Below, piece by piece: positions 1 to 50,760 of a DNA stretch of 57,960 bases. Numbering within the stretch: the stretch's first letter is position 1; every line of letters starts with the position of its first letter. Under the pieces are notes generated by a model. That model saw only the letters and a list, made by a program, of their open reading frames with translations, was not told the DNA's origin and made no database searches. The stretch lies in contig BFEA01000019.1 of NCBI GenBank assembly GCA_003427395.1, positions 735,889-793,848 of the forward strand, given 5' to 3'. Origin of the DNA: Chara braunii. Taxonomy: Eukaryota; Plantae; Charophyceae. The position numbers and the translations under genes are program-made.

Positions 1-707
1 GTATGCCATAACAGCCCACTTGCACGCTGTGAGAGAGGCAAAGTGAAGGGGAAGGTGTTAAACACAGGGAAAAGCTCAAGAATGAGGCTGTCCTTGACGA
101 CAGAAAGGACACACATTGTAAGGATGGGGTGGATGTATATCGTCACATGAATATCAGAGCGCAAAAGCGAAAAAAAAAGAAAACGAAAAAAAAGAAAAGA
201 ATGAATTCGGTTTTTATCTTCTTCCTTACAACTCCACCGTCAGAACCTCTTGCGTACAAGGCCGCCCACGTGGATGTAGGTTGAGTGGCGGCTGCCCCCA
301 CCCCCGTGTGTTGACTAAGAGCGCAAGCACGTGAAGTAGAAGAAGAAATAAGATGAGCAAAGGAAGAAAAATGAAAGGACAGACAGGCAAAGAGAAACAA
401 ACTAGAATGACACAAAACAGTGTCCTCTTCTTCTTTGTTACACTGTATTCTTACTTCTTTCAGTGTTTTACAAAATGTTTTTACACTGAACAAAGGACAA
501 AAATAAAAAACAAAGACACATTGACATCATTCAATTTCTCAGTCTTCTTAAGACCTCCACCGTGCCTCTAACGTACAAGGCCCACCACGTTGATGAAGTT
601 GAGCGCGAGCTGCCCCCTATAGTCATAGGGTACAACCCGGTGAACCACAGGCATGAAGGGATTAAAGGATAAGAAACCGGAGGCCGCGACACTGCCGATA
701 ACCGTAC

Positions 708-869: not shown

Positions 870-1287
870 CTACAGCACAAGACCGCACACAAAGTGACGA
901 GTCCTTATCCATCAGCCAAATACATCCTGGGCAGACTCTGTTAGGGTTTAACCTCCAGACGAGTCGATGAAAGTCCAACAAATCAATCTGGAACAGTCAT
1001 GGTCTATGGAGCTGTCTATACCGAAAAAGACAAAACACAACCGCACACGCACACAAACACTCTCTCTCTCTCTCTCTCTCTCAAAATCAGCGGGGGGGGT
1101 ACACCGTTGTCCAGTTAAACCATAAAGCACCCACTCTGTCAACTTGCACAAATAGACAAATGTTTGTCTGCTACTTGCGGGCAATATCCAAAAGGGAAAA
1201 CTAACTTTGGCACTCTTGTTACCGCATCTCCCCGTTGTTGTGGCCAGATACATTCACTGACGTCCTACTTTGTGTATGCCTACACAT

Positions 1288-8819: not shown

Positions 8820-9470
8820 CATGCTCAATACATGTGTGCGTGTTCATCACCTCTTACGTACAAGGCCAGTCACGTGGATGACATCGTCACATGAATATCA
8901 GAGCGCAAAGGGGAAAAAAACAAAAAACAACAAGAAAAAAATAATTCGTTTTTTTCCTTCCTTACAACTCCCCCTGTTCAGAACCTCCTCTTGCGTACAA
9001 GGCCGCCCACGTGGATGTGGGTTGAGCGGCGGCTGCCCCCACCCCCGTGTGTCATATCGACCCACTTGCACACAGCCAAAGGATATATCCAGCAACAGAA
9101 AGATGTCTCTCCACTCCCAATAATCTAAATGCACATATATATCGTCTATGCATATATATTGTCACAAGAATATCAGAGCGCAAATGCGAAAAAAAGAAAA
9201 AAAGAAAGAAAAACAGTCTATGCATATATGCATATATCATCACATGAATATGAGAGCGCAAAAGCGAAAAAAAAAAAAAAAAGAATAAATACGTTTTTTT
9301 ATATCTTCTTCCTTACAACTCCCCCTGTTCAGAACCTCTTGCGTACAAGGCCGCCCACGTGGATGTATATATATATGCATATAATTGTCACATGAATATC
9401 AGAGCGCAAAGGCGAAAAAAACAGAAGAAAACAACAAAAAATAATTCGTTTTTTTTATATATGCATACAT
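8820..9470. repeat. Clustered copies of a second interspersed family (tatcgtcacatgaatatcagagcgcaaa...cttacaactccccc...gtacaaggccgcccacgtggatg)
   Basis: Repeated at about 138-310, 8880-9070, 9160, 9240-9365, 9385 and 9735-9830; diverged copy at about 21170-21510. Confidence 0.8.
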
Positions 9471-9477
9471 GTATACA

Positions 9478-9725
9478 TATCGTCCTAGAGAACTGCCCGG
9501 TGAACCGTAGGCAGAGAGGGAGAGGAGGACAACGAAACCGAGGGGCTGTGACAGACTTTCGTCGGAGCTTCACCCACTCATCAGGAGGTTGAACCCTCTA
9601 CAGTCTACAGGGGTCCCTTCACCGACGATGATACGGTAATCATAATCCACCATAACCACGGTCGCGGTTGAGCATCAACGACTGCCCCAGAACTGATACC
9701 CCGAAGGGAACAACCACTATACACC
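9478..9725 (-). mobile_element. Dispersed copy of the hammerhead element (2-nt deletion after GAAA)
   Basis: AGACUGUA GAGG..CCUC CUGAUGA GUGGG..CCGAC GAAA GUCU at about 9552-9606; flanked by TA-rich runs. Confidence 0.75.
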
Positions 9726-9967
9726 CATATATATCGTCACATGAAATACATATACATATCGTCACAAATATATCGGAGCGCAAAAGCGAAATATGTATAT
9801 ATATTGTCACACTGTGAATCGGAGCGCAAAGGCGGAAAAAGACTAAACAAAAAAGGGAAAGAAGGAAGAAAAAGCTCCGCCTGTTCATCACCTCTTATAC
9901 ACGAGCATATACATATACACATATATACATATATATACGCGCGTACGCATATGTGCATCTACATATA

Positions 9968-10085
9968 TCTCTTGATGAGTCGTTGAAGCTCCCGATGAAA
10001 CAGTTTGTCACAGCCCCTCGTTTGTTGTCCTCTTCCCCCTCCCTCTCTGCCCCTACGGTTTACCGGACAGTTCTGTCTGACGATA
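9968..10085 (+). mobile_element. Inverted, 5'-truncated copy of the hammerhead element
   Basis: ttgatgagtcg...gaaacagtttgtcacagcccctcg...cctacggtttaccggacagttctgtctgacgatata. Confidence 0.7.
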
Positions 10086-10154
10086 TACATGACTGCTACA
10101 CGATTTGACCGACATTTTCTCTCCCACTCCCCTCTCCCAAAGCACCCCCTATCC

Positions 10155-17882: not shown

Positions 17883-19572
17883 AAAAAAAAAAAAGTTGAA
17901 TGGCAAACACGGCATATGGGTCAAACTACGGCCTCGATACATTTTTATTGTTGAAATTATTTTTTTATTTATTTAATATTTTTCCTTGAGAGATCACTAC
18001 AAAAATTGTGAGCACGTCCTTCGGGACATCCGTTAAAATTGAAACGATACATAAAACATTGCATGGCCCTAAGGATGACACGAATAAATTGAGGAAAAAA
18101 AAATGCAAACACTTCAATTTATCATTTTTTCATACATTCTTTTGAGCACAAAAAATCACTGCAGTTGGAGTATTTTTTCCATTGGCCTACATGTGGTCGA
18201 GTGGCAAAAATGGCAAATGTGTCGAATCGACACGTTCATTATTTAACGGTCTTAACGATTTTTTTTAATTGTTTTTAGATTTTTTATTAAACGATCACGA
18301 CCTAGTCTATGGATTCCAAACTTTTCAGTGTTTTTTGCGAAGTCCTTCGAGCAAAAAAATCGTCAAAGTTACCTCGTGCAAATAGCAAGACTGGACCTGT
18401 CGGCACCATCCGCCTTAAATAGTTTGCGCATGAAACTCCCGAACACGCCACCCCTTCTTGCTTTCTTTTTGGGTCCACTTCCACCTGAGGACCAGCCGTT
18501 CCATTTCCAAAAGTCTCGGTTTTACGAGAGGTAGTTCTAGGTCATCCGCAATATCGCCAAGGACGGGTCCCGCAAAAACTTTTGCCCCTAAGAACCCACT
18601 TGCGTCCTGGCCGCCCGCAACCAAAAATGCAACACCTTGACACATATGTTGAAGCCCGCTATATTGCCGCCTTAGGGCTACAAATTGTCTACCCCGTGGG
18701 TGAGGGGAAAACAACTTTACGGTATCTATAGCAATGAGACCAAGCGCCCGTACAAAAGAGAGAGAGGGGGGGGGGGGCGGGAGCACCAGAGAGAGAGAGA
18801 GAAGGAGGGAGGTTGAATGACAAAATTGAAATATGAGTCAAATTGTAGCCGTGATCTATTTCACAGGTAATATTTTTTTATGGTTATTTTTTTAATGGAA
18901 AAAATCACAACAAAATTTACGAGCATCGCAATTTTTATATATATATATTTTTTTTTTTTTTTGCGTGAAAAATCACTGAAGCTGAAGTTTTTTTTTCGTT
19001 GGCCCACACATGGCTGAGTGACAAAAATGGAATATAGGTCTAAAAGACGAAATGATTTTCGAAAAATACTTTGATATTTTTCTTGAAAAAAACACGTTTT
19101 AATCTATGAATTCTTAAATTTTAATTTATAATTTTTTATGCAAATTCCTCCGAACATAAAAAATCACAAAATTTGTCTCTTGCAAAATGTTTGTTTTGTT
19201 ATGCCTTCCCACGCCTTTCCAGCGTTGACCTCCCTGTTCTTAAAAAACGAACCTCAACGTCTAGGTCTGAAGGCCCTTTTGTAGTTCACATGCAAGGAGT
19301 ACTGGTCCTCCAATTTTTTACCGCGCCGGTTCCAGGCGCGATCGTTGTATGTAGTCTGTAAGAATGTGATGGACCGGTTCCCCAACAACTTTCACCCCAT
19401 TAAAACCCACTTATGTGTCGATCCCCCGCCGCTGATAATGTGTCACCTTAACACAAACGCTGAAGCCTAATCTACCACATCCTTAGGGTTGCGAATTACC
19501 AATTGTCTACTGTGTAGGCACAAGGAACACAAACCTAAGGTAGCTAAAGCAATAGGACTAAGCGTTTGCACA

Positions 19573-20369: not shown

Positions 20370-20580
20370 GTATTCCTGTGTATATATACGTTGTTATGTT
20401 TGATATGTACGACTCCACGAAAAAAATAATAATTGTTCAAGAATGTTTCGTTTTTCTTTCATCGACTCATTAGGAGGTTAAACCCCAACGCTCTACCTAT
20501 GATGCATTTGACTAATGGATAAAGACTCACCACATCGCCCAGAGTTAGCTATACCCCTAAGAAACTGGTTGACTTCACTT
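20370..20580 (-). mobile_element. Hammerhead element subfamily 2, older decayed copy
   Basis: gactcattaggaggttaaacccc...catttgact...caccacatcgcccagagttag aligns to the 26.4-kb copy. Confidence 0.55.
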
Positions 20581-23500
20581 CCATCCACCTTGCAATGCTC
20601 GTAGACTGTTGGTCCAAACCCTTGATAAGAAACTAATTTATCACAACAATAAAACCCACTCTACACACATATATTCAACCATGGATTTGTGTGTGTTTGG
20701 GTTGTGTGCTCGTACGTACGCCATGCTGCGAATTTTGTGTAGGGCCGAGTTCAAGAGTTGAAGCCGACACATGAGGAATTTTGGCAGAGATGACATGTTT
20801 CTTCGGGTGACGTGAATTTTATTTCTTTTATTTTCCCAAGGGTTTGTGGGCTTCTCTTGCTGTAGATTATGACATTGTACGGGGAAGAAATAACAAATCT
20901 TCAATAAAAAACTTTGCATGAATTTGAACTTTGGGGCAGGGGAGAAAGTTAGGGTGTTCAACCATGATAGGGGAGGAGATGGAGACATTAAGAGTTTTGT
21001 TTTTCAGAATTTATTATCTATGTTTAAGAGTTATGCCACTAGAAGGGTGGGATTGTTTTAGTATTTTTTATATAAGTTGTCACATATGTCTGAACTAAAA
21101 AAACTCACTTTGAGAAACAAACTGTAAAACTACACTAAGAAATATGAGGAGCACATTTAAACCATTTGTTTTTCTCCTTCTTCTTTTAACTCCCCCTACA
21201 CTGTACCTCTCATGTACAAGGTTCATTATTTTCATAAAATTGAATGCGAGTTGCCCTCATCCTCGTATGCCATAACGACCTATTTGTACACTGTGAGAAA
21301 GAGACAAAGTAAACTGGAAGGGGATAAACACAAAGAAACAAGATAGAAATAAAACAAAACAAATAAACGACAAAGAGAAAATAACGAGAGTGGAAAAATG
21401 ATATGGGCGAAAATAGGATAAGAAAAAACTCAGGAATCATCTGTCATTGATGATAGAGAGCACATGCATTGTAAGGAAGAAGTGGGCGATACGTCGATGA
21501 CCTGATATTCACAGTACAATAATTGCCACGATGATTAATATTGAGTATCGACATTGTGTTGATGAACCAATTGTTTATAAGCCGTATTGGGATAACGAAG
21601 GTTCTGTCGGTGGGAGAAGTACACTCAACTTATACCACGAAGGAATATCATGCTTAAATATCGAAGTTAAAAAAACAGTGCTTTATTATCTCTTACCCAT
21701 GCTAACTAGGCTCTTTAGGTTTTATATCGGTAGTGGTTAGGATATTTAATATAATTTCTCCCGTTTTCTAGTTACACATAGCCTAAGATGTTTCTTTGCT
21801 GAAGTTATACTAATATAAGATCTCTTAACTATTCACCTTTATTAAGTATTGCATACTACACCCGATTAATTTCCTAAGAACTGTAGCGAACAAATCTATA
21901 AGAGCAAGTGTCGATGCCGCAAAATGAGTACGTAGAAAAATATTTGGCCATTTTATTGAGATAGGAGTTAATGCAGAAACAATTTTACACGCATAATTTA
22001 TCTCCCACTTACATTTATAAGATTTTTTTTATTTTTTTTTTTTTTTTTTTTTGTAAAAAAATATACTTGCATTTTTTTTTTTACCTACCGAAGATGAATC
22101 CATAGCAAAGAAATGTGATTGTATCCCTAGGTAGAGGTGTCAAAGCAGAAACCCTTACGAGGGCATTTGCTCGGTATTTTAAATGTCAGATGGTGTCCGA
22201 AATTTGTTAATTTTTTTGACTTTATGAGGTTGATGCGTTTGCCATACGTTTATTCATACCTTACCTATGACTAAGAGGCTAAAACTATTTTTAAAACTTA
22301 AATCCGGATGTATGCCGACGTTCGGGATAAGAAGTGTGACTTGTTCTATTCCGTTTCTAACAAGGCCGCATAAACACACGACCGGTGAAACAATAAATCC
22401 TATAACCTATATTTAAAAAAAAAAAAGGTTGTGCAGTTGTACAACCGCGCTATCAGGGCCTAAGTAGGCTAAAATAACAGCTGCACTGCGTATGGGGCTG
22501 CACCGCGGAAGAAATGGGTTGCCTATTTTGTTTATTATTATAGATTATTTGACCGTAGGGTTTTTTTCCGCAACGAGGGTCGGGAAACCTGCACCATGGT
22601 CTCCCCAATTGGGTAACCTTTAAGCCGTGGATGGGTAACCGTCCATGGGAAATGGGTAGACAGGCAGGGTCTTCTCAGCCACAAGCAGGCAGATTACGTT
22701 GGACAAAGCTCTTCATATAGAAGTGTTGCTCCTGCTTCACTAGAAGCAGAGGCTAGCCAAGTAGGTAAATAAGCCAACCTGATATGCCAGAGATGCGGGG
22801 ATCGAAGCCCGGATGCCCTGTTGGGATAGCTCCTTTTGAAGTCGACCATCATGATGGAGCATTAAGTAGCAGTCGATTTCGACCGTGGGTTCGATGTGAT
22901 AACGTGACTGGTATTAGTCGCGCGAACGTGAAAGGAAACCCTACGCAAGGATGACATAAGTAAATGGAAAAAAAGAAGAAAATAAAAGTGTTGAAGTCGA
23001 TCTCCTTTAGGAATCGAACTTGGTTTGTATTTCAATTGTTCGTGGCTGAAAGCTATAAAAAATGATCATTCAATTATTAGGTTCAAGCCAACGGAAAATG
23101 GAAAAACAAAAAATCTAACTAAAAACAAAGCGTCAGATGACGCGATTCGAAGTGGTTGGGAGTTGCAACTCCCAACAGTCAAAACAAACGTCTGGGTTCA
23201 CGGACAACCGTTTCGTTTATAATGTAAGATCATTTGTTTATTTTTTGTTTTTTATTGTTACATTCTTTTGTTTATTTCTATTTAGATTTTATCTTGGATT
23301 TTTTTTTTTTTTTTTTCTTCTCTAGATGCCCCCTCCCCGATCTGAGTCGGCAAGTTACATCGTAGGAAGGGGGCAACAACATGGCGGTGTATCTTTCCAT
23401 GTTTTACCAGAAGGTTCTTCCTCATTTTGCACATTTGACGAGTACTGGAACGTGGCCTATCCTCGTGTTGGTGACCCTCCACTTTGATTACCTCATAACT

Positions 23501-26394: not shown

Positions 26395-26600
26395 CTGGTC
26401 TCCTGTGAGTGTGTATGTTGTCATATTCGCTATACACTCAAAAAAAGCACGACTGTGCCAGATTGGTTCGTCGGACTTTCAATGACTCATCAGGAGGTTG
26501 AACCCCGACAGTCTGCCCAGGATTCATTTGACTGAAGGTTAAGAATGCACCACATCGTCCAGAGTTAGAGATAGCCCTGAGAATAGTGGTAGACTTTACT
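26395..26600 (-). mobile_element. Hammerhead element subfamily 2 (degenerate core)
   Basis: CAGACUGUC GGGG..CCUC CUGAUGA GUC...GAC GAAC at about 26459-26515. Flanks are shared with the 20.4-kb copy; adjacent to (TG)n. Confidence 0.65.
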
Positions 26601-26601
26601 C

Positions 26602-26673
<72 letters not shown>

Positions 26674-34369: not shown

Positions 34370-34703
34370 ACTAACGTCATATTGCACGGCCCAGGTTGCG
34401 GGCCGGTCACCACCTGCGGACGGCCCAGATCGCAGGCCGATGATCTGGCCCATCCGCAGGTGGTGACCGGCCCGCTATCTGGGCCGTGCGATACCGGTTC
34501 GGCCCGCCCAAACGACCCTTCTGCACGCGCGCCCGCACCCAGCCCTAAAATCGCCCTTCGAAGGGTTGTATATTTGCCCACCATTCGAAGGGGCGCGCTT
34601 CTCAATTGTCTCGCTACGGCATGCGACGTCACAGTACGACACACTACGGTGCGCGACGGCACGCGACGGCACGCGACGGCACGCGACGACACTCCCTCCT
34701 ACC

Positions 34704-34828: not shown

Positions 34829-35180
34829 CTACGTGCTTCGGTGATCAGTGCTCCACGGACATTGGTGAACGTATGTTGGTGCTCTACGTGCTTTGGTAAT
34901 GGGTGCTCTACTTGCTTTGGTGATCGGTGCTCTACGTGCTTTGGCGATCCGTGCTCTACGTGCGTTGGTGAACGTGCTTTGGTGATCGGTGCTCTAGATG
35001 CGTTGGTGAACGTGCTTTGGTGATTGGTGCTCTAGATGCGTTGGTGAACGTGTGTTGGTGCTCTACGTGCTTTGGTGATCGGTGCTCTACGTGCGTTTGG
35101 TAAATGTGCGTTGGAGCTCTATGTGCTTTGGTAATCGGTGCTCTACGTGCTTTGATGATCGGTACTCTACGTGCTTTGAT

Positions 35181-35241
<61 letters not shown>

Positions 35242-36080
35242 NNNNNNNNNNNNNNNNNNNNNNNNNNNNNNNNNNNNNNNNNNNNNNNNNNNNNNNNNNN
35301 NNNNNNNNNNNNNNNNNNNNNNNNNNNNNNNNNNNNNNNNNNNNNNNNNNNNNNNNNNNNNNNNNNNNNNNNNNNNNNNNNNNNNNNNNNNNNNNNNNNN
35401 NNNNNNNNNNNNNNNNNNNNNNNNNNNNNNNNNNNNNNNNNNNNNNNNNNNNNNNNNNNNNNNNNNNNNNNNNNNNNNNNNNNNNNNNNNNNNNNNNNNN
35501 NNNNNNNNNNNNNNNNNNNNNNNNNNNNNNNNNNNNNNNNNNNNNNNNNNNNNNNNNNNNNNNNNNNNNNNNNNNNNNNNNNNNNNNNNNNNNNNNNNNN
35601 NNNNNNNNNNNNNNNNNNNNNNNNNNNNNNNNNNNNNNNNNNNNNNNNNNNNNNNNNNNNNNNNNNNNNNNNNNNNNNNNNNNNNNNNNNNNNNNNNNNN
35701 NNNNNNNNNNNNNNNNNNNNNNNNNNNNNNNNNNNNNNNNNNNNNNNNNNNNNNNNTCTCTGTGTGTGTGCTCTAATTCCTTCGGTGATCGGTGCTCCGA
35801 GTCTACGTGCGTTGGTGAACGCGCATTGGTGCTCTACGTGCTTTGGTGGTCGGTGCTCTACGGGCTTTGGTAATCGGTGCTCTACGTGCTTTGGTGATCG
35901 GTGCTCTACGTGCTTCGGTGATCGGTGCTTTACGTGCTTTGGTGATCGGTGCTCTACGTGCTTTGGTGAACGGTGATTGGTGCTCTATATGCTGTGGTGA
36001 TCGGTGCTCTACGTGCTTTGGTGATCGATGTTGTACATGCTTTGGTGATCGATGCTCTACGTGCGTTGGTGCTCTACGTG
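34822..36080. repeat. 24-bp minisatellite (gtgctctacgtgctttggtgatcg), interrupted by (CT)n and an N gap
   Basis: Many near-identical tandem copies. Confidence 0.9.
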
Positions 36081-36944
36081 TGTTGCGTACAACGAAGTTC
36101 TCCAAAGGTAGTTCGTAATAATTTTCAGGGCTAAACAAAGAAATGTATTCACTGTTTTTGGAAAATTTATAGATACTCATTTTTTTAGTAATTTGGGTTT
36201 CTTTCAATATTGTCATGCAGGCGCGACGCTCCAAAAGGACAATGCAGCCAATACACCTACCACGAGCAAGAGAACAAATGGAGACGAAACGCACGACAAC
36301 TCGCCACCGTCCGCAAACATTGCTGATCAAACGCCAAACAAACTGCCATTTACTACTGCTCCTACTGCAAACCTTGCAGATACTGAAACATGTCAACCAC
36401 TTCCTCCTTCCACAAACATAAACGCCTCTAATACTGCTCCTACTGAAAACCTTGCAGATGCTGCAACCTGTGAAGAACTTCCTCCTTCCACAAACATTAA
36501 CGCCTCGCAAAATAGTGTCGCCGCGCTTACCTAACTCACACCGTTGACAATTGTCAATCTAGATGATGATACCGCTTTGGATGATGCTCTGTGTAGTGCG
36601 GATATTCACGGTCTAAAATATGCACGAGCGAAAGTTGGCCCTTCACCATTCTCCCAGACCATGCTTACTTCTCCATCATTTTTACCTTCTACACAACATC
36701 GAGTTTGCCCACGCACACTGCAATTTCTCACTCCGCAGTCTACCACTTCACCGTCTTCACCGACCCAATCCCCGAGTTGGCATCACATGGTGAAGATCAC
36801 CGGTTTGCCAAACCTTATTGAATGCCTGCTTTGGGAAAATTTCTTTCCGACTACTTTGCATGTTCTTATATATCGTTACAAACAGAACTGCCCGGTAAAC
36901 CGTAGGCAGAGAGAGAGAAAAGGACAACAAACGAGGGGCTGTGA

Positions 36945-37002
36945 CAAACAGTTTCGTCGGAGTTTTACCAACTCATCAGGAGGCTGAACCCTCAACAGTC
37001 TG
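36945..37002 (-). ncRNA. Type III hammerhead ribozyme, intact core
   Basis: CAGACU-GUU^-GAGG guucag CCUC-CUGAUGA-GUUGG uaaaacu CCGAC-GAAA-CUGUUUG; one U-U mismatch in stem III. Confidence 0.8.
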
Positions 37003-38294
37003 CAGAATCCCCTCACTGATTACACTATAAATGATAATCTACCTTAACCAAAATCAAAGTAGACTATCACTCACCCACACCAGATGGAAAACTCTACAGA
37101 CTGTCGGTTCACACCCCATCACAAGCCAGCAAAACATCCACNNNNNNNNNNNNNNNNNNNNNNNNNNNNNNNNNNNNNNNNNNNNNNNNNNNNNNNNNNN
37201 NNNNNNNNNNNNNNNNNNNNNNNNNNNNNNNNNNNNNNNNNNNNNNNNNNNNNNNNNNNNNNNNNNNNNNNNNNNNNNNNNNNNNNNNNNNNNNNNNNNN
37301 NNNNNNNNNNNNNNNNNNNNNNNNNNNNNNNNNNNNNNNNNNNNNNNNNNNNNNNNNNNNNNNNNNNNNNNNNNNNNNNNNNNNNNNNNNNNNNNNNNNN
37401 NNNNNNNNNNNNNNNNNNNNNNNNNNNNNNNNNNNNNNNNNNNNNNNNNNNNNNNNNNNNNNNNNNNNNNNNNNNNNNNNNNNNNNNNNNNNNNNNNNNN
37501 NNNNNNNNNNNNNNNNNNNNNNNNNNNNNNNNNNNNNNNNNNNNNNNNNNNNNNNNNNNNNNNNNNNNNNNNNNNNNNNNNNNNNNNNNNNNNNNNNNNN
37601 NNNNNNNNNNNNNNNNNNNNNNNNNNNNNNNNNNNNNNNNNNNNNNNNNNNNNNNNNNNNNNNNNNNNNNNNNNNNNNNNNNNNNNNNNNNNNNNNNNNN
37701 NNNNNNNNNNNNNNNNNNNNNNNNNNNNNNNNNNNNNNNNNNNNNNNNNNNNNNNNNNNNNNNNNNNNNNNNNNNNNNNNNNNNNNNNNNNNNNNNNNNN
37801 NNNNNNNNNNNNNNNNNNNNNNNNNNNNNNNNNNNNNNNNNNNNNNNNNNNNNNNNNNNNNNNNNNNNNNNNNNNNNNNNNNNNNNNNNNNNNNNNNNNN
37901 NNNNNNNNNNNNNNNNNNNNNNNNNNNNNNNNNNNNNNNNNNNNNNNNNNNNNNNNNNNNNNNNNNNNNNNACCAAAATCAAAGTAGACTATCACTCACC
38001 CACACCAGATGGAAAACTCTACAGACTGTCGGTTCACACCCCATCACAAGCCAGCAAAACATCCACTAAACAAAGAAAGGTCTGTCACAGCCAAAANATA
38101 CACTCCAGACAAGCCGCTGGGACTAGAGGCACAGCATGGCCGCCTAGTAACGGCCCCGACCACTGCCGCTCAACCTGACCGAAAAAAACCGTAGCAGGCA
38201 GATTGCGAAGTCGTAGTATATATCGTCACAAACAAAACTGCCCTGTAAACCGTAGGCAGAGAGAGAGAGGAGGACAACAAACGAGGGGCTGTGA

Positions 38295-38351
38295 CAGACT
38301 GTTTCGTCAGAGTTTCACCGACTCATCAGGAGGCTGAACCCTCAACAATCT
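38295..38351 (-). ncRNA. Type III hammerhead ribozyme, intact core
   Basis: AGAUU-GUU^-GAGG guucag CCUC-CUGAUGA-GUCGG ugaaacu CUGAC-GAAA-CAGUCU; all three stems pair. Confidence 0.85.
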
Positions 38352-50577: not shown

Positions 50578-50760
50578 TATTGTTGCAGACAACTGCCCCG
50601 TGAGCTGTCGACAGAAAGGGAGAAAAGGACAAGAAGTAGGGTGCTGTGCCAGACTGTTTGTCGGACTTTCACCAACTTACCAGGACGCTGAAACCTCAAT
50701 AGTCTGCACAGTCCCCTAACAGGTGGAAGATAGTATATGAGTTAATTCACCTTAACCCCA
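50578..50760 (-). mobile_element. Decayed hammerhead element copy in a HOS1 intron
   Basis: aactgccccgtgagc...gctgtgccagactgtttgtcggactttcacc...gaaacctcaatagtctgca; core mutated. Confidence 0.6.

Follow-up and report, generated by a model that had tools for sequence, protein, structure and literature searches.

A non-coding 425-nt repeat of Chara braunii, probably a Chlamys-type Penelope-like element, whose hammerhead ribozyme is predicted to be clamped by an inverted copy of itself

The repeat described here is probably a non-autonomous Penelope-like retroelement of the Chlamys type, with a unit of 425 nt and a type III hammerhead ribozyme that is predicted to be clamped, in a rod of ~110 bp, by a decayed inverted copy lying upstream of it. 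It is found in a 57,960-nt stretch of the Chara braunii genome (contig BFEA01000019.1 of assembly GCA_003427395.1, positions 735,889 to 793,848), which we refer to as the window. The original prediction of a built-in off-switch is supported by the predicted folding, by a 23:2 bias of G·U pairs towards the ribozyme strand and by the presence of the arm across the family.

The repeat is non-coding (the longest ATG frame of the unit has 61 codons), has a period of 425 nt and occurs as tandem units with one hammerhead each (Table 1). On the ribozyme strand, the order of its parts would be 5' domain, antisense arm, tip hairpin, hammerhead and 126-nt tail. This order, like the reading of 38217-38423 as a 5'-truncated leader copy, is based on the 3' end and 5' start motifs and on the insertion pattern with its fixed boundary (see below). 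The leader is 93% identical to 36867-37073. The 830-N assembly gap likely represents collapsed units, about two of them as we infer.

Table 1. Coordinates of the repeat, its parts and related copies in the window
Feature	Positions	Strand	Remarks
Chlamys-1/-6_cBra 3'-region fragment	560..617	-	exact 19-mer at 588-606
Decayed hammerhead copy	920..1000	+	family model 44.7 bits; not among the copies used to build the model
Subfamily copy, 5'-truncated, insert at hairpin tip	9474..9730	-	short inverted stub at 9969-10087 (+)
Divergent subfamily copy	20427..20672	-	decayed hammerhead 20427-20507 and likely its own arm 20590-20672
Subfamily copy, GUC-triplet hammerhead	26447..26603	-	truncated at the tip hairpin base
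3'-most unit	36867..37141	-	part of arm, tip hairpin, second hammerhead 36946-37001, tail ending on TATATA
Assembly gap, 830 N	37142..37971	.	95 identical bases on both flanks
Antisense arm	38012..38092	-	minus-strand RNA pairs the entire hammerhead; plus-strand reading is a decayed hammerhead
5' domain of unit	38093..38216	-	first ~60 nt: short motifs in common with Chlamys-1/-4/-6_cBra 5' ends, by eye
5'-truncated leader copy, pseudo-LTR-like, 207 nt	38217..38423	-	tip hairpin, hammerhead and 126-nt tail, without upstream arm
3' end motif AGTT..TGTGACG against TATATA, junction of tandem units	38217..38239	-	loose ends and Chlamys comparison
Type III hammerhead	38296..38351	-	RF00008, 39.9 bits, E 1e-6
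Tip hairpin, 21 bp, axis of the inverted repeat	38378..38423	-	circular fold; same hairpin in contiguous 36925-37141
Short 3'-end copies, direct (38423-38437) and inverted (38453-38492)	38423..38492	.	beside the 5' end of the insertion, within TA runs
Decayed copy, mutated core	50577..50757	-	comparison of window copies and family model

Within positions 36800-38600, Rfam detects two hammerheads on the minus strand, that of Table 1 and a second at 36946-37001 (33.5 bits, E 7e-5), and none on the plus strand; neither of the two (39.9 and 33.5 bits) reaches the RF00008 gathering score of 48.5. Both have the type III layout, with a CUGANGA and GAAA core, an NUH triplet, closed stems I and II and an open stem III. 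At 38296-38351 the CUGAUGA and GAAA core is intact and the triplet is GUU. Cleavage is predicted after GUU, between 38344 and 38343 (36994/36993 in the second hammerhead). Over seven partly decayed copies, 84% of the cells in the hammerhead stems are paired and covariation is not above that of shuffles. The cleavage triplet is polymorphic at 36994 and 38344, a GUC form amounting to ~6-12% of the DNA depth. This form makes up 4-11% of presumed sense RNA reads versus 35-46% of antisense reads, and a GUA form has the opposite strand bias in run X23.

The arm was originally noticed as two patches complementary to the hammerhead of the same unit. The complementarity is real, but the patches are parts of one longer arm of ~110 nt, which extends from the tip hairpin through 38012-38092 and pairs the whole hammerhead. 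The patch at 38080-38092 is indeed the exact reverse complement of 38287-38299 and forms the end of this arm. A match at 13 of 13 positions holds for this copy, whereas A is the base at 38297 in ~95% of the DNA depth and makes one minus-strand pair a G·U. Exact inverted repeats of at least 13 nt occur in 3 of 200 shuffled monomers. The other patch, 37093-37111, recurs near 38018 as had been noted (it is identical to 38018-38036), although the two copies are not independent evidence because the gap is flanked by 95 identical bases. Its match to the hammerhead at 11 of 12 positions stands as well, except that the partner is 36995-37006, one base off the 36996-37007 first given. In contrast, GAAA at 38075 was wrongly taken for the counterpart of the ribozyme GAAA. 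The homologue of GAAAC is 38067-38071, which is followed by a 7-nt insert and reads TAAAC in this copy (G is found at 38067 in 98.6% of the DNA depth).

Alignment of 38287-38398 with 37978-38092, scored by identity only, yields 70 identical positions out of 107 and a score of 78, while the maximum among 1000 shuffles is 39. The transition mismatches are markedly one-sided: 23 of the 25 give G·U pairs on minus-strand RNA and 2 do so on the plus strand (p 2e-5). The corresponding ratio is 21:1 in the contiguous copy and 12:3 in L005, a copy from a metagenome. A mutation bias that would match this skew is absent among current DNA variants (A>G 8, G>A 7, C>T 4 and T>C 3 in run X2), which makes selection for RNA pairing on the ribozyme strand the likely cause.

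Folded as a circle, the minus strand of the 425-nt unit reaches −159.8 kcal/mol with 72% of its bases paired (z −6.2; 0 of 40 shuffles as low), and the plus strand −89.9 kcal/mol (z −1.0; 9 of 40 shuffles as low). This folding of the monomer had been proposed as a check on the pairing, and in it the minus-strand hammerhead is wholly paired with 38012-38092. The contiguous stretch 36925-37141, folded as linear RNA, gives the same rod. To adopt the ribozyme fold, the arm-less leader is predicted to need 3.0 kcal/mol, as against 36-39 kcal/mol when the arm is present; both values disregard tertiary contacts, and the latter is for a modelled complete unit, none being contiguous in the window. Since the arm lies upstream and is joined to the hammerhead by the 21-bp hairpin, it would trap the hammerhead during transcription. 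Even when the upstream arm is half-taken by the cut upstream tail, the downstream hammerhead is still 19 kcal/mol from its active fold. Release of monomer circles by a cascade of cuts is not supported by folding. In a monomer that runs from cut to cut, the two ends pair with neighbouring positions of the arm and leave a 3-nt bulge where they meet.

It had been proposed that the arm is a relic ribozyme of opposite polarity. As to descent this appears correct. A family model built from 7 hammerhead copies detects the plus-strand arm as a weak homologue when sequence alone is used (12.9 bits, E 0.005; 15.9 bits, E 5e-4 for the arm of L005) and scores it at 13.1 bits when structure is included. 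Since the score stays at ~13 bits with or without structure, the arm is a decayed homologue to which the hammerhead fold adds nothing. As to a working ribozyme, the plus-strand arm has no functional core (AUCACAA, with 3 of 7 positions kept) and no Rfam match; its stem I lacks 3 nt, stem II is unable to pair on this strand and stem III is interrupted by the 7-nt insert. The plus-strand fold has a z-score of 0.33. The differences between the stem II of the arm and that of the hammerhead are of the wobble type, as for a copy of the same sequence. An intact plus-strand core, which was to be sought in other copies, is present in neither of the two sequenced arm copies (window and L005) nor among the variants listed for 37093-37141 (40 of 72), all of which are under 3% of the DNA depth.

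Lack of conservation in other family members had been named as a result that would speak against the arm; in fact, the arm is family-wide. In DNA run X1 the depth, which is not a copy number, is ~1.0-1.2 million over the arm and 1.0-1.8 million over the hammerhead side, and this similarity indicates a high-copy family whose units normally include the arm. One contig of run X20 has 4 differences over the entire stretch. A metagenome scan yielded 17 loci, namely one family member, L005, which is 93% identical and possesses the arm, and 16 unrelated hammerheads that match in the core only. With regard to variation in the rod, 11 of 14 common family variants preserve the pairing, where 61% would be expected to do so (p 0.14; the 5 variants located at unpaired positions are excluded), and 4 of these 14 only revert private changes of the window copy. 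Rare variants keep rod pairs in 10 of 21 cases, and 8 of the 11 rod differences of L005 break pairs. No two-sided compensation between arm and hammerhead is shown among the variants compared.

The window holds eight hammerhead copies at seven loci. The copy at 20.4 kb belongs to a subfamily and is identical to the main family at 47 of 72 hammerhead positions. At a distance of 123 nt from its cut site, as compared with 111 nt in the main family, lies a plus-strand segment to which the family model assigns 14.3 bits (E 0.018). This segment, at 20.6 kb, is identical to the main arm at 50 of 77 positions, a value attained by 0 of 1000 shuffles, and ranks in the top 1% of 1254 window tiles, where A/C-rich tiles score equally (joint 8th-10th). 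Its comparison with its own decayed hammerhead is not significant, 190 of 1000 shuffles being as high. Because of this null result and of the equal A/C-rich tiles, its assignment as an arm rests on position, strand and the model match. On the plus strand its relic core reads UUGAUAA, and A8 is common to both arms. The antisense arm thus likely has a homologue in a subfamily that is 65% identical. Beside the copies at 0.9, 9.5 and 50.6 kb, no arm scores above shuffles.

Several further forms were encountered. In 165-170 contigs that depart at 36951, a sister hammerhead family has (ATG)n and an A-run adjoining the hammerhead, and a sister family diverges at 37009-37012. In another, seen in 70-74 contigs at 37050, the hairpin tip holds an insert similar to 9660-9720 and to part of the 5' domain; contigs with this insert that match on both sides point to another sister form. 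Copies of three subfamilies have a common 5' end at the tip hairpin base (38423, 9730 and 26603, with UGAGUG, UGGGUG and UGAGUA, respectively), which may be a second preferred RNA start. The main-family site, G/GUGAGU, resembles a 5' splice site. Among the metagenome loci, L001, L002, L007-L011, L015 and L016 represent a recurring hammerhead family with near-identical flanks that has only the core in common with the Chara unit. The flanks of the L005 copy (L005:1-390 and 977-1110) start with CAGGGT on both sides, in opposite orientation, which suggests DNA transposon ends.

The reading of the repeat as a circle or a two-polarity replicon had overlooked that its ends and insertion pattern are of the Penelope (Chlamys) type. 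The 3' boundary of the unit is fixed at 38217-38229, where it runs into (TA)n, and many boundaries occur on the opposite side. Loose ends with (TA)n ahead of 38217 and 38229 were found in 4 of 4 runs, TA runs are present at both ends of the insertion, and reads and contigs contain back-going as well as opposite-strand joints. Truncation at the 5' end, partial tandems or pseudo-LTRs and inverted truncated end copies are all seen in the window, in L005 and in the joints; insertions that are truncated, tandem or inverted at the end are marks of Penelope-like elements (PMC8557442). L005 has the same pattern of short 3'-end copies beside its 5' end as the window.

The terminal sequences point in the same direction. 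Chlamys-1/-6_cBra prefer (TA)n and end in AGTT(C/A)TGTGACAA (PMC8557442 supplement), and the Chara unit ends in AGTT..TGTGACG followed by ATAT. At its 5' start (minus strand from 38216) are GCTAGCT (family majority) and TTGAGCGGC, which by eye are also found at Chlamys-1/-4/-6 starts; the supplement of PMC8557442 contains TTGAGCGGC at three places, two of which are the starts of Chlamys-4 and -6_cBra. The similarity to autonomous Chlamys elements consists of short motifs at both ends, compared by eye and without an alignment score. Of five motifs of the 425-nt family, four had no match in that supplement and the fifth matched Chlamys-2 in the core only. Elsewhere in the window, the 19-mer at 588-606 matches two consensus sequences of that supplement and no others, those of Chlamys-1_cBra and Chlamys-6_cBra. 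Chlamys elements that are non-autonomous, arranged head-to-tail and similar to their helpers at the 3' end have been described (PMC8557442), and Chlamys-1/-6_cBra are the likely helpers of the 425-nt unit. Another fragment that resembles a Chlamys_cBra 3' region lies at ~9339-9365. Two plus-strand motifs within 38124-38175, AGAGGCACAG and CTGCCGCTCAACC, are shared with the 3' region of Chlamys-1 or -4_cBra, so that the unit RNA is complementary to the helper 3' region at these points; more speculatively, it could pair in trans with the helper RNA.

An LTR or TRIM reading, based on the purine run and on TGTGACA..TGTCACA as plus-strand LTR ends, was rejected since there is no primer-binding site and the insertions end elsewhere. 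On either strand of the unit, no tRNA-Met primer-binding site is found within 3 mismatches, and the sole purine run of at least 10 nt is on the non-ribozyme strand. There is no 4-bp target duplication, the ends being located in TA runs. On the plus strand, the insertion lies between ORFs of 140, 150 and 177 codons (36112-36870 and 38583-39116) for which no family was found; they are possibly one degenerate gene or element split at a TA run. The idea that flanking ORFs encode the element's own RT and endonuclease was discarded, as Pfam gives no match for three of four ORFs and one chance-level match. The 177-aa ORF has no Atlas match.

We propose that, at nicked (TA)n sites, an RT and endonuclease of the Chlamys-1/-6 type would copy the unit RNA starting from the 3' end. 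The arm would have originated as a head-to-head inverted copy of the kind that such elements make, and would have been retained because it keeps a complete unit from losing its 126-nt priming tail to its own ribozyme. Truncation ahead of the arm would leave leader copies with a free ribozyme able to cut read-through transcripts and thereby to set the 5' end of the template. The ribozyme of the R2 element has a similar trimming role. Inverted copies are routine in Penelope-like insertion and pairs of opposite-strand hammerheads 100-700 bp apart have been reported in Penelope-like elements (PMC4209133), which makes inverted duplication followed by selection the simplest origin of the arm. The remnant of a two-polarity replicon is less likely than such a duplication.

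Both arms are transcribed and both strands are found in poly(A) RNA, which is explicable by genomic copies; the RNA data consist of oligo-dT raw reads and contigs and are blind to circles either way. Signs of cutting are indirect and weak. TA-flanked 5' ends lie at 36992, one base off the predicted cut, in 54 and 65 contigs (DNA runs X2 and X4; among the six loose ends listed, with 616 further rows), a count that may be inflated because this position is T and TA microhomology favours T. In run X22, 303 reads have 5' ends at 38342. The listed TA-type truncation points are on the 3' side of the predicted cut, and truncations could also result from stalling of the RT in the rod. Across the cut, the depth drops 9-15-fold in presumed sense RNA and 3-7-fold on the other strand, as compared with 0.8-1.1-fold in DNA (strandedness being assumed). 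The RNA drop comes for the most part from a small number of truncated copies that are expressed, with 800 reads ending at 36965. On the upstream side of the cut, the sense strand is covered at 0.8-1.3-fold the depth of the arm (three runs of one study), a weak hint that only locked copies stay uncut. No sharp RNA start was called at the predicted cut. An RNA joint from 38396 to 37972 (52 and 211 reads) was considered as a tandem or circle junction and rejected, as it is internal to the unit.

An alternative model assumes a circular retrozyme, in which tandem transcripts are cut by one hammerhead after another into 425-nt monomers, the arm holds the monomer ends together for ligation and protects the circle, and rolling-circle reverse transcription at (TA)n produces tandems. 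The arm would make a good ligation splint, as it holds the ends of the cut-to-cut monomer on adjacent positions with a 3-nt bulge. The extent of pairing in the circle resembles that of plant retrozymes (about 70%, with the hammerhead blocked; PMC4918200), the TA junction is identical in the window and in L005, and Penelope-like elements have been suggested to use a circular template (PMC4209133). However, folding predicts that an upstream arm keeps a hammerhead 19 kcal/mol from its active fold even if half of that arm is occupied by the cut tail, and the RNA joint mentioned above does not span a unit junction. We consider this model unlikely. A neutral fold-back, left by a past inverted insertion, with the hammerhead as a passenger and a pairing that serves no role, would agree with the non-significant polymorphism and covariation tests and with the L005 differences, which mostly break pairs. 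Neutral decay, however, predicts G·U and A·C in equal numbers and not the observed 23:2 (p 2e-5), the inverted part ends exactly at the end of the hammerhead stem III extension, and the arm is uniform across the family, so that we regard this explanation as very improbable indeed.

The hammerhead and the arm could also derive from a viroid-like RNA with ribozymes in both polarities that was captured between Chlamys ends, its second ribozyme having since decayed. The hammerhead is of type III, whereas the Chara Chlamys hammerheads of File S2 have the type I layout (open stem I) and none is listed there for Chlamys-1/-4/-6. The arm is likely older than a subfamily split of about 35% divergence, and the UUGAUAA of the 20.6-kb arm is the U3-A8 core variant of PMC4209133, with A8 in both arms. 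Against this origin, no intact plus-strand core exists in the two sequenced arm copies or in the listed variants (<3% of DNA depth), and the wobble-type changes of the arm stem II are those expected of a copy of the same sequence. U3 is present in one decayed copy only, and a C-to-T change is common; searches for a related viral contig gave 0 matches in one case and 6 core-limited matches in the other. Such a capture seems quite improbable to us. A broader version, in which the family is the chromosomal fossil of a two-ribozyme viroid-like rod whose arm was once an active U3-A8 hammerhead, the replicon having been either captured or built by inversion, has in our opinion a small chance of being correct. 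If it were true, it would link Penelope retroelements, plant retrozymes and Avsunviroidae-type RNAs directly, in the algal lineage next to land plants.

The Chlamys-type element with a clamped hammerhead, which we favour, shares features with several known systems. Chlamys elements (non-autonomous ones such as MRC1, and Chlamys-1/-4/-6_cBra; Craig et al. 2021, PMC8557442) have the same 5' truncation, partial tandems, inverted 5' copy, (TA)n targets and head-to-tail copies, and Chlamys-1/-4/-6_cBra share the short motifs at both ends. In that source no hammerhead is listed for Chlamys-1/-4/-6, and those of Chlamys-2/-3/-5 and PLE-X1 have the type I layout, whereas the Chara unit is non-coding, with a type III hammerhead and a blocking arm. 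The plant LTR retrozymes (Cervera, Urbina and de la Pena 2016, PMC4918200) are likewise non-coding, of type III and about 70% paired, with the ribozyme blocked by a highly complementary arm, as is predicted for the Chara unit. Unlike them, the Chara unit has no tRNA-Met site, no polypurine tract on the ribozyme strand and no 4-bp duplication. It has Penelope-type ends, measures 425 nt and resides in an alga, while plant retrozymes have Gypsy-type ends, measure 600-1000 nt, occur in flowering plants and form circular RNA (PMC4918200). Metazoan non-LTR retrozymes, proposed to be non-autonomous Penelope-like derivatives (Cervera and de la Pena 2020, PMC7229834; Li, Clavereau and Pollet, bioRxiv 10.64898/2026.07.22.740005), also have tandem units (150-450 bp) with one hammerhead each. 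Their hammerheads are of type I and mostly free to fold (PMC7229834), whereas that of the Chara unit, in a streptophyte alga, is of type III and predicted to be locked.

The retrozymes described in this literature are thus of two kinds, the plant one being LTR/Gypsy-dependent, of type III and self-blocked, and the animal one tandem, Penelope-derived, of type I and unblocked. The Chara element combines the ribozyme and lock of the plant retrozymes with the ends and insertion pattern of the animal kind. Through its habit of inversion, a retroelement could give rise to a rod that sets a hammerhead opposite its own complement, which is the layout of hammerhead viroids. The Avsunviroidae, two-polarity viroid-like RNAs and the carnation retroviroid-like element share a G/U-rich rod of about 400 nt in which a hammerhead lies against a hammerhead-like complement (PMC6563258); by comparison with these RNAs, the Chara unit has one intact polarity, is a high-copy chromosomal sequence with retroelement ends and gives no sign of RNA-to-RNA replication.

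What hammerheads do in Penelope-like elements has been stated to be unclear (PMC8557442). The arm-less leader and the complete unit form a natural on/off pair, which makes one answer to this question testable. The 425-nt family is not described in the literature searched on Chara or charophyte hammerheads, type III retrozymes and Chara Penelope repeats; nor was a blocked type III hammerhead found described there in a Penelope-like element. Isolated algal hammerheads are listed in Additional file 1 of PMC4918200.

A few other features of the window deserve mention. A full plant-type U6 gene is present at 48751-48851 and a decayed U6 copy at 18016-18108. U6-like pieces are located on opposite strands at 42880-42985 (minus) and 43320-43387 (plus), and are contained in, or adjoin, a 99-nt, 92% inverted repeat (42930-43028 / 43250-43348). 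One exon matches plant HOS1 (E 3e-24). A G+C-rich hairpin of about 79 nt at 34397-34475 adjoins a 24-nt tandem array (34878-36071) that spans another gap.
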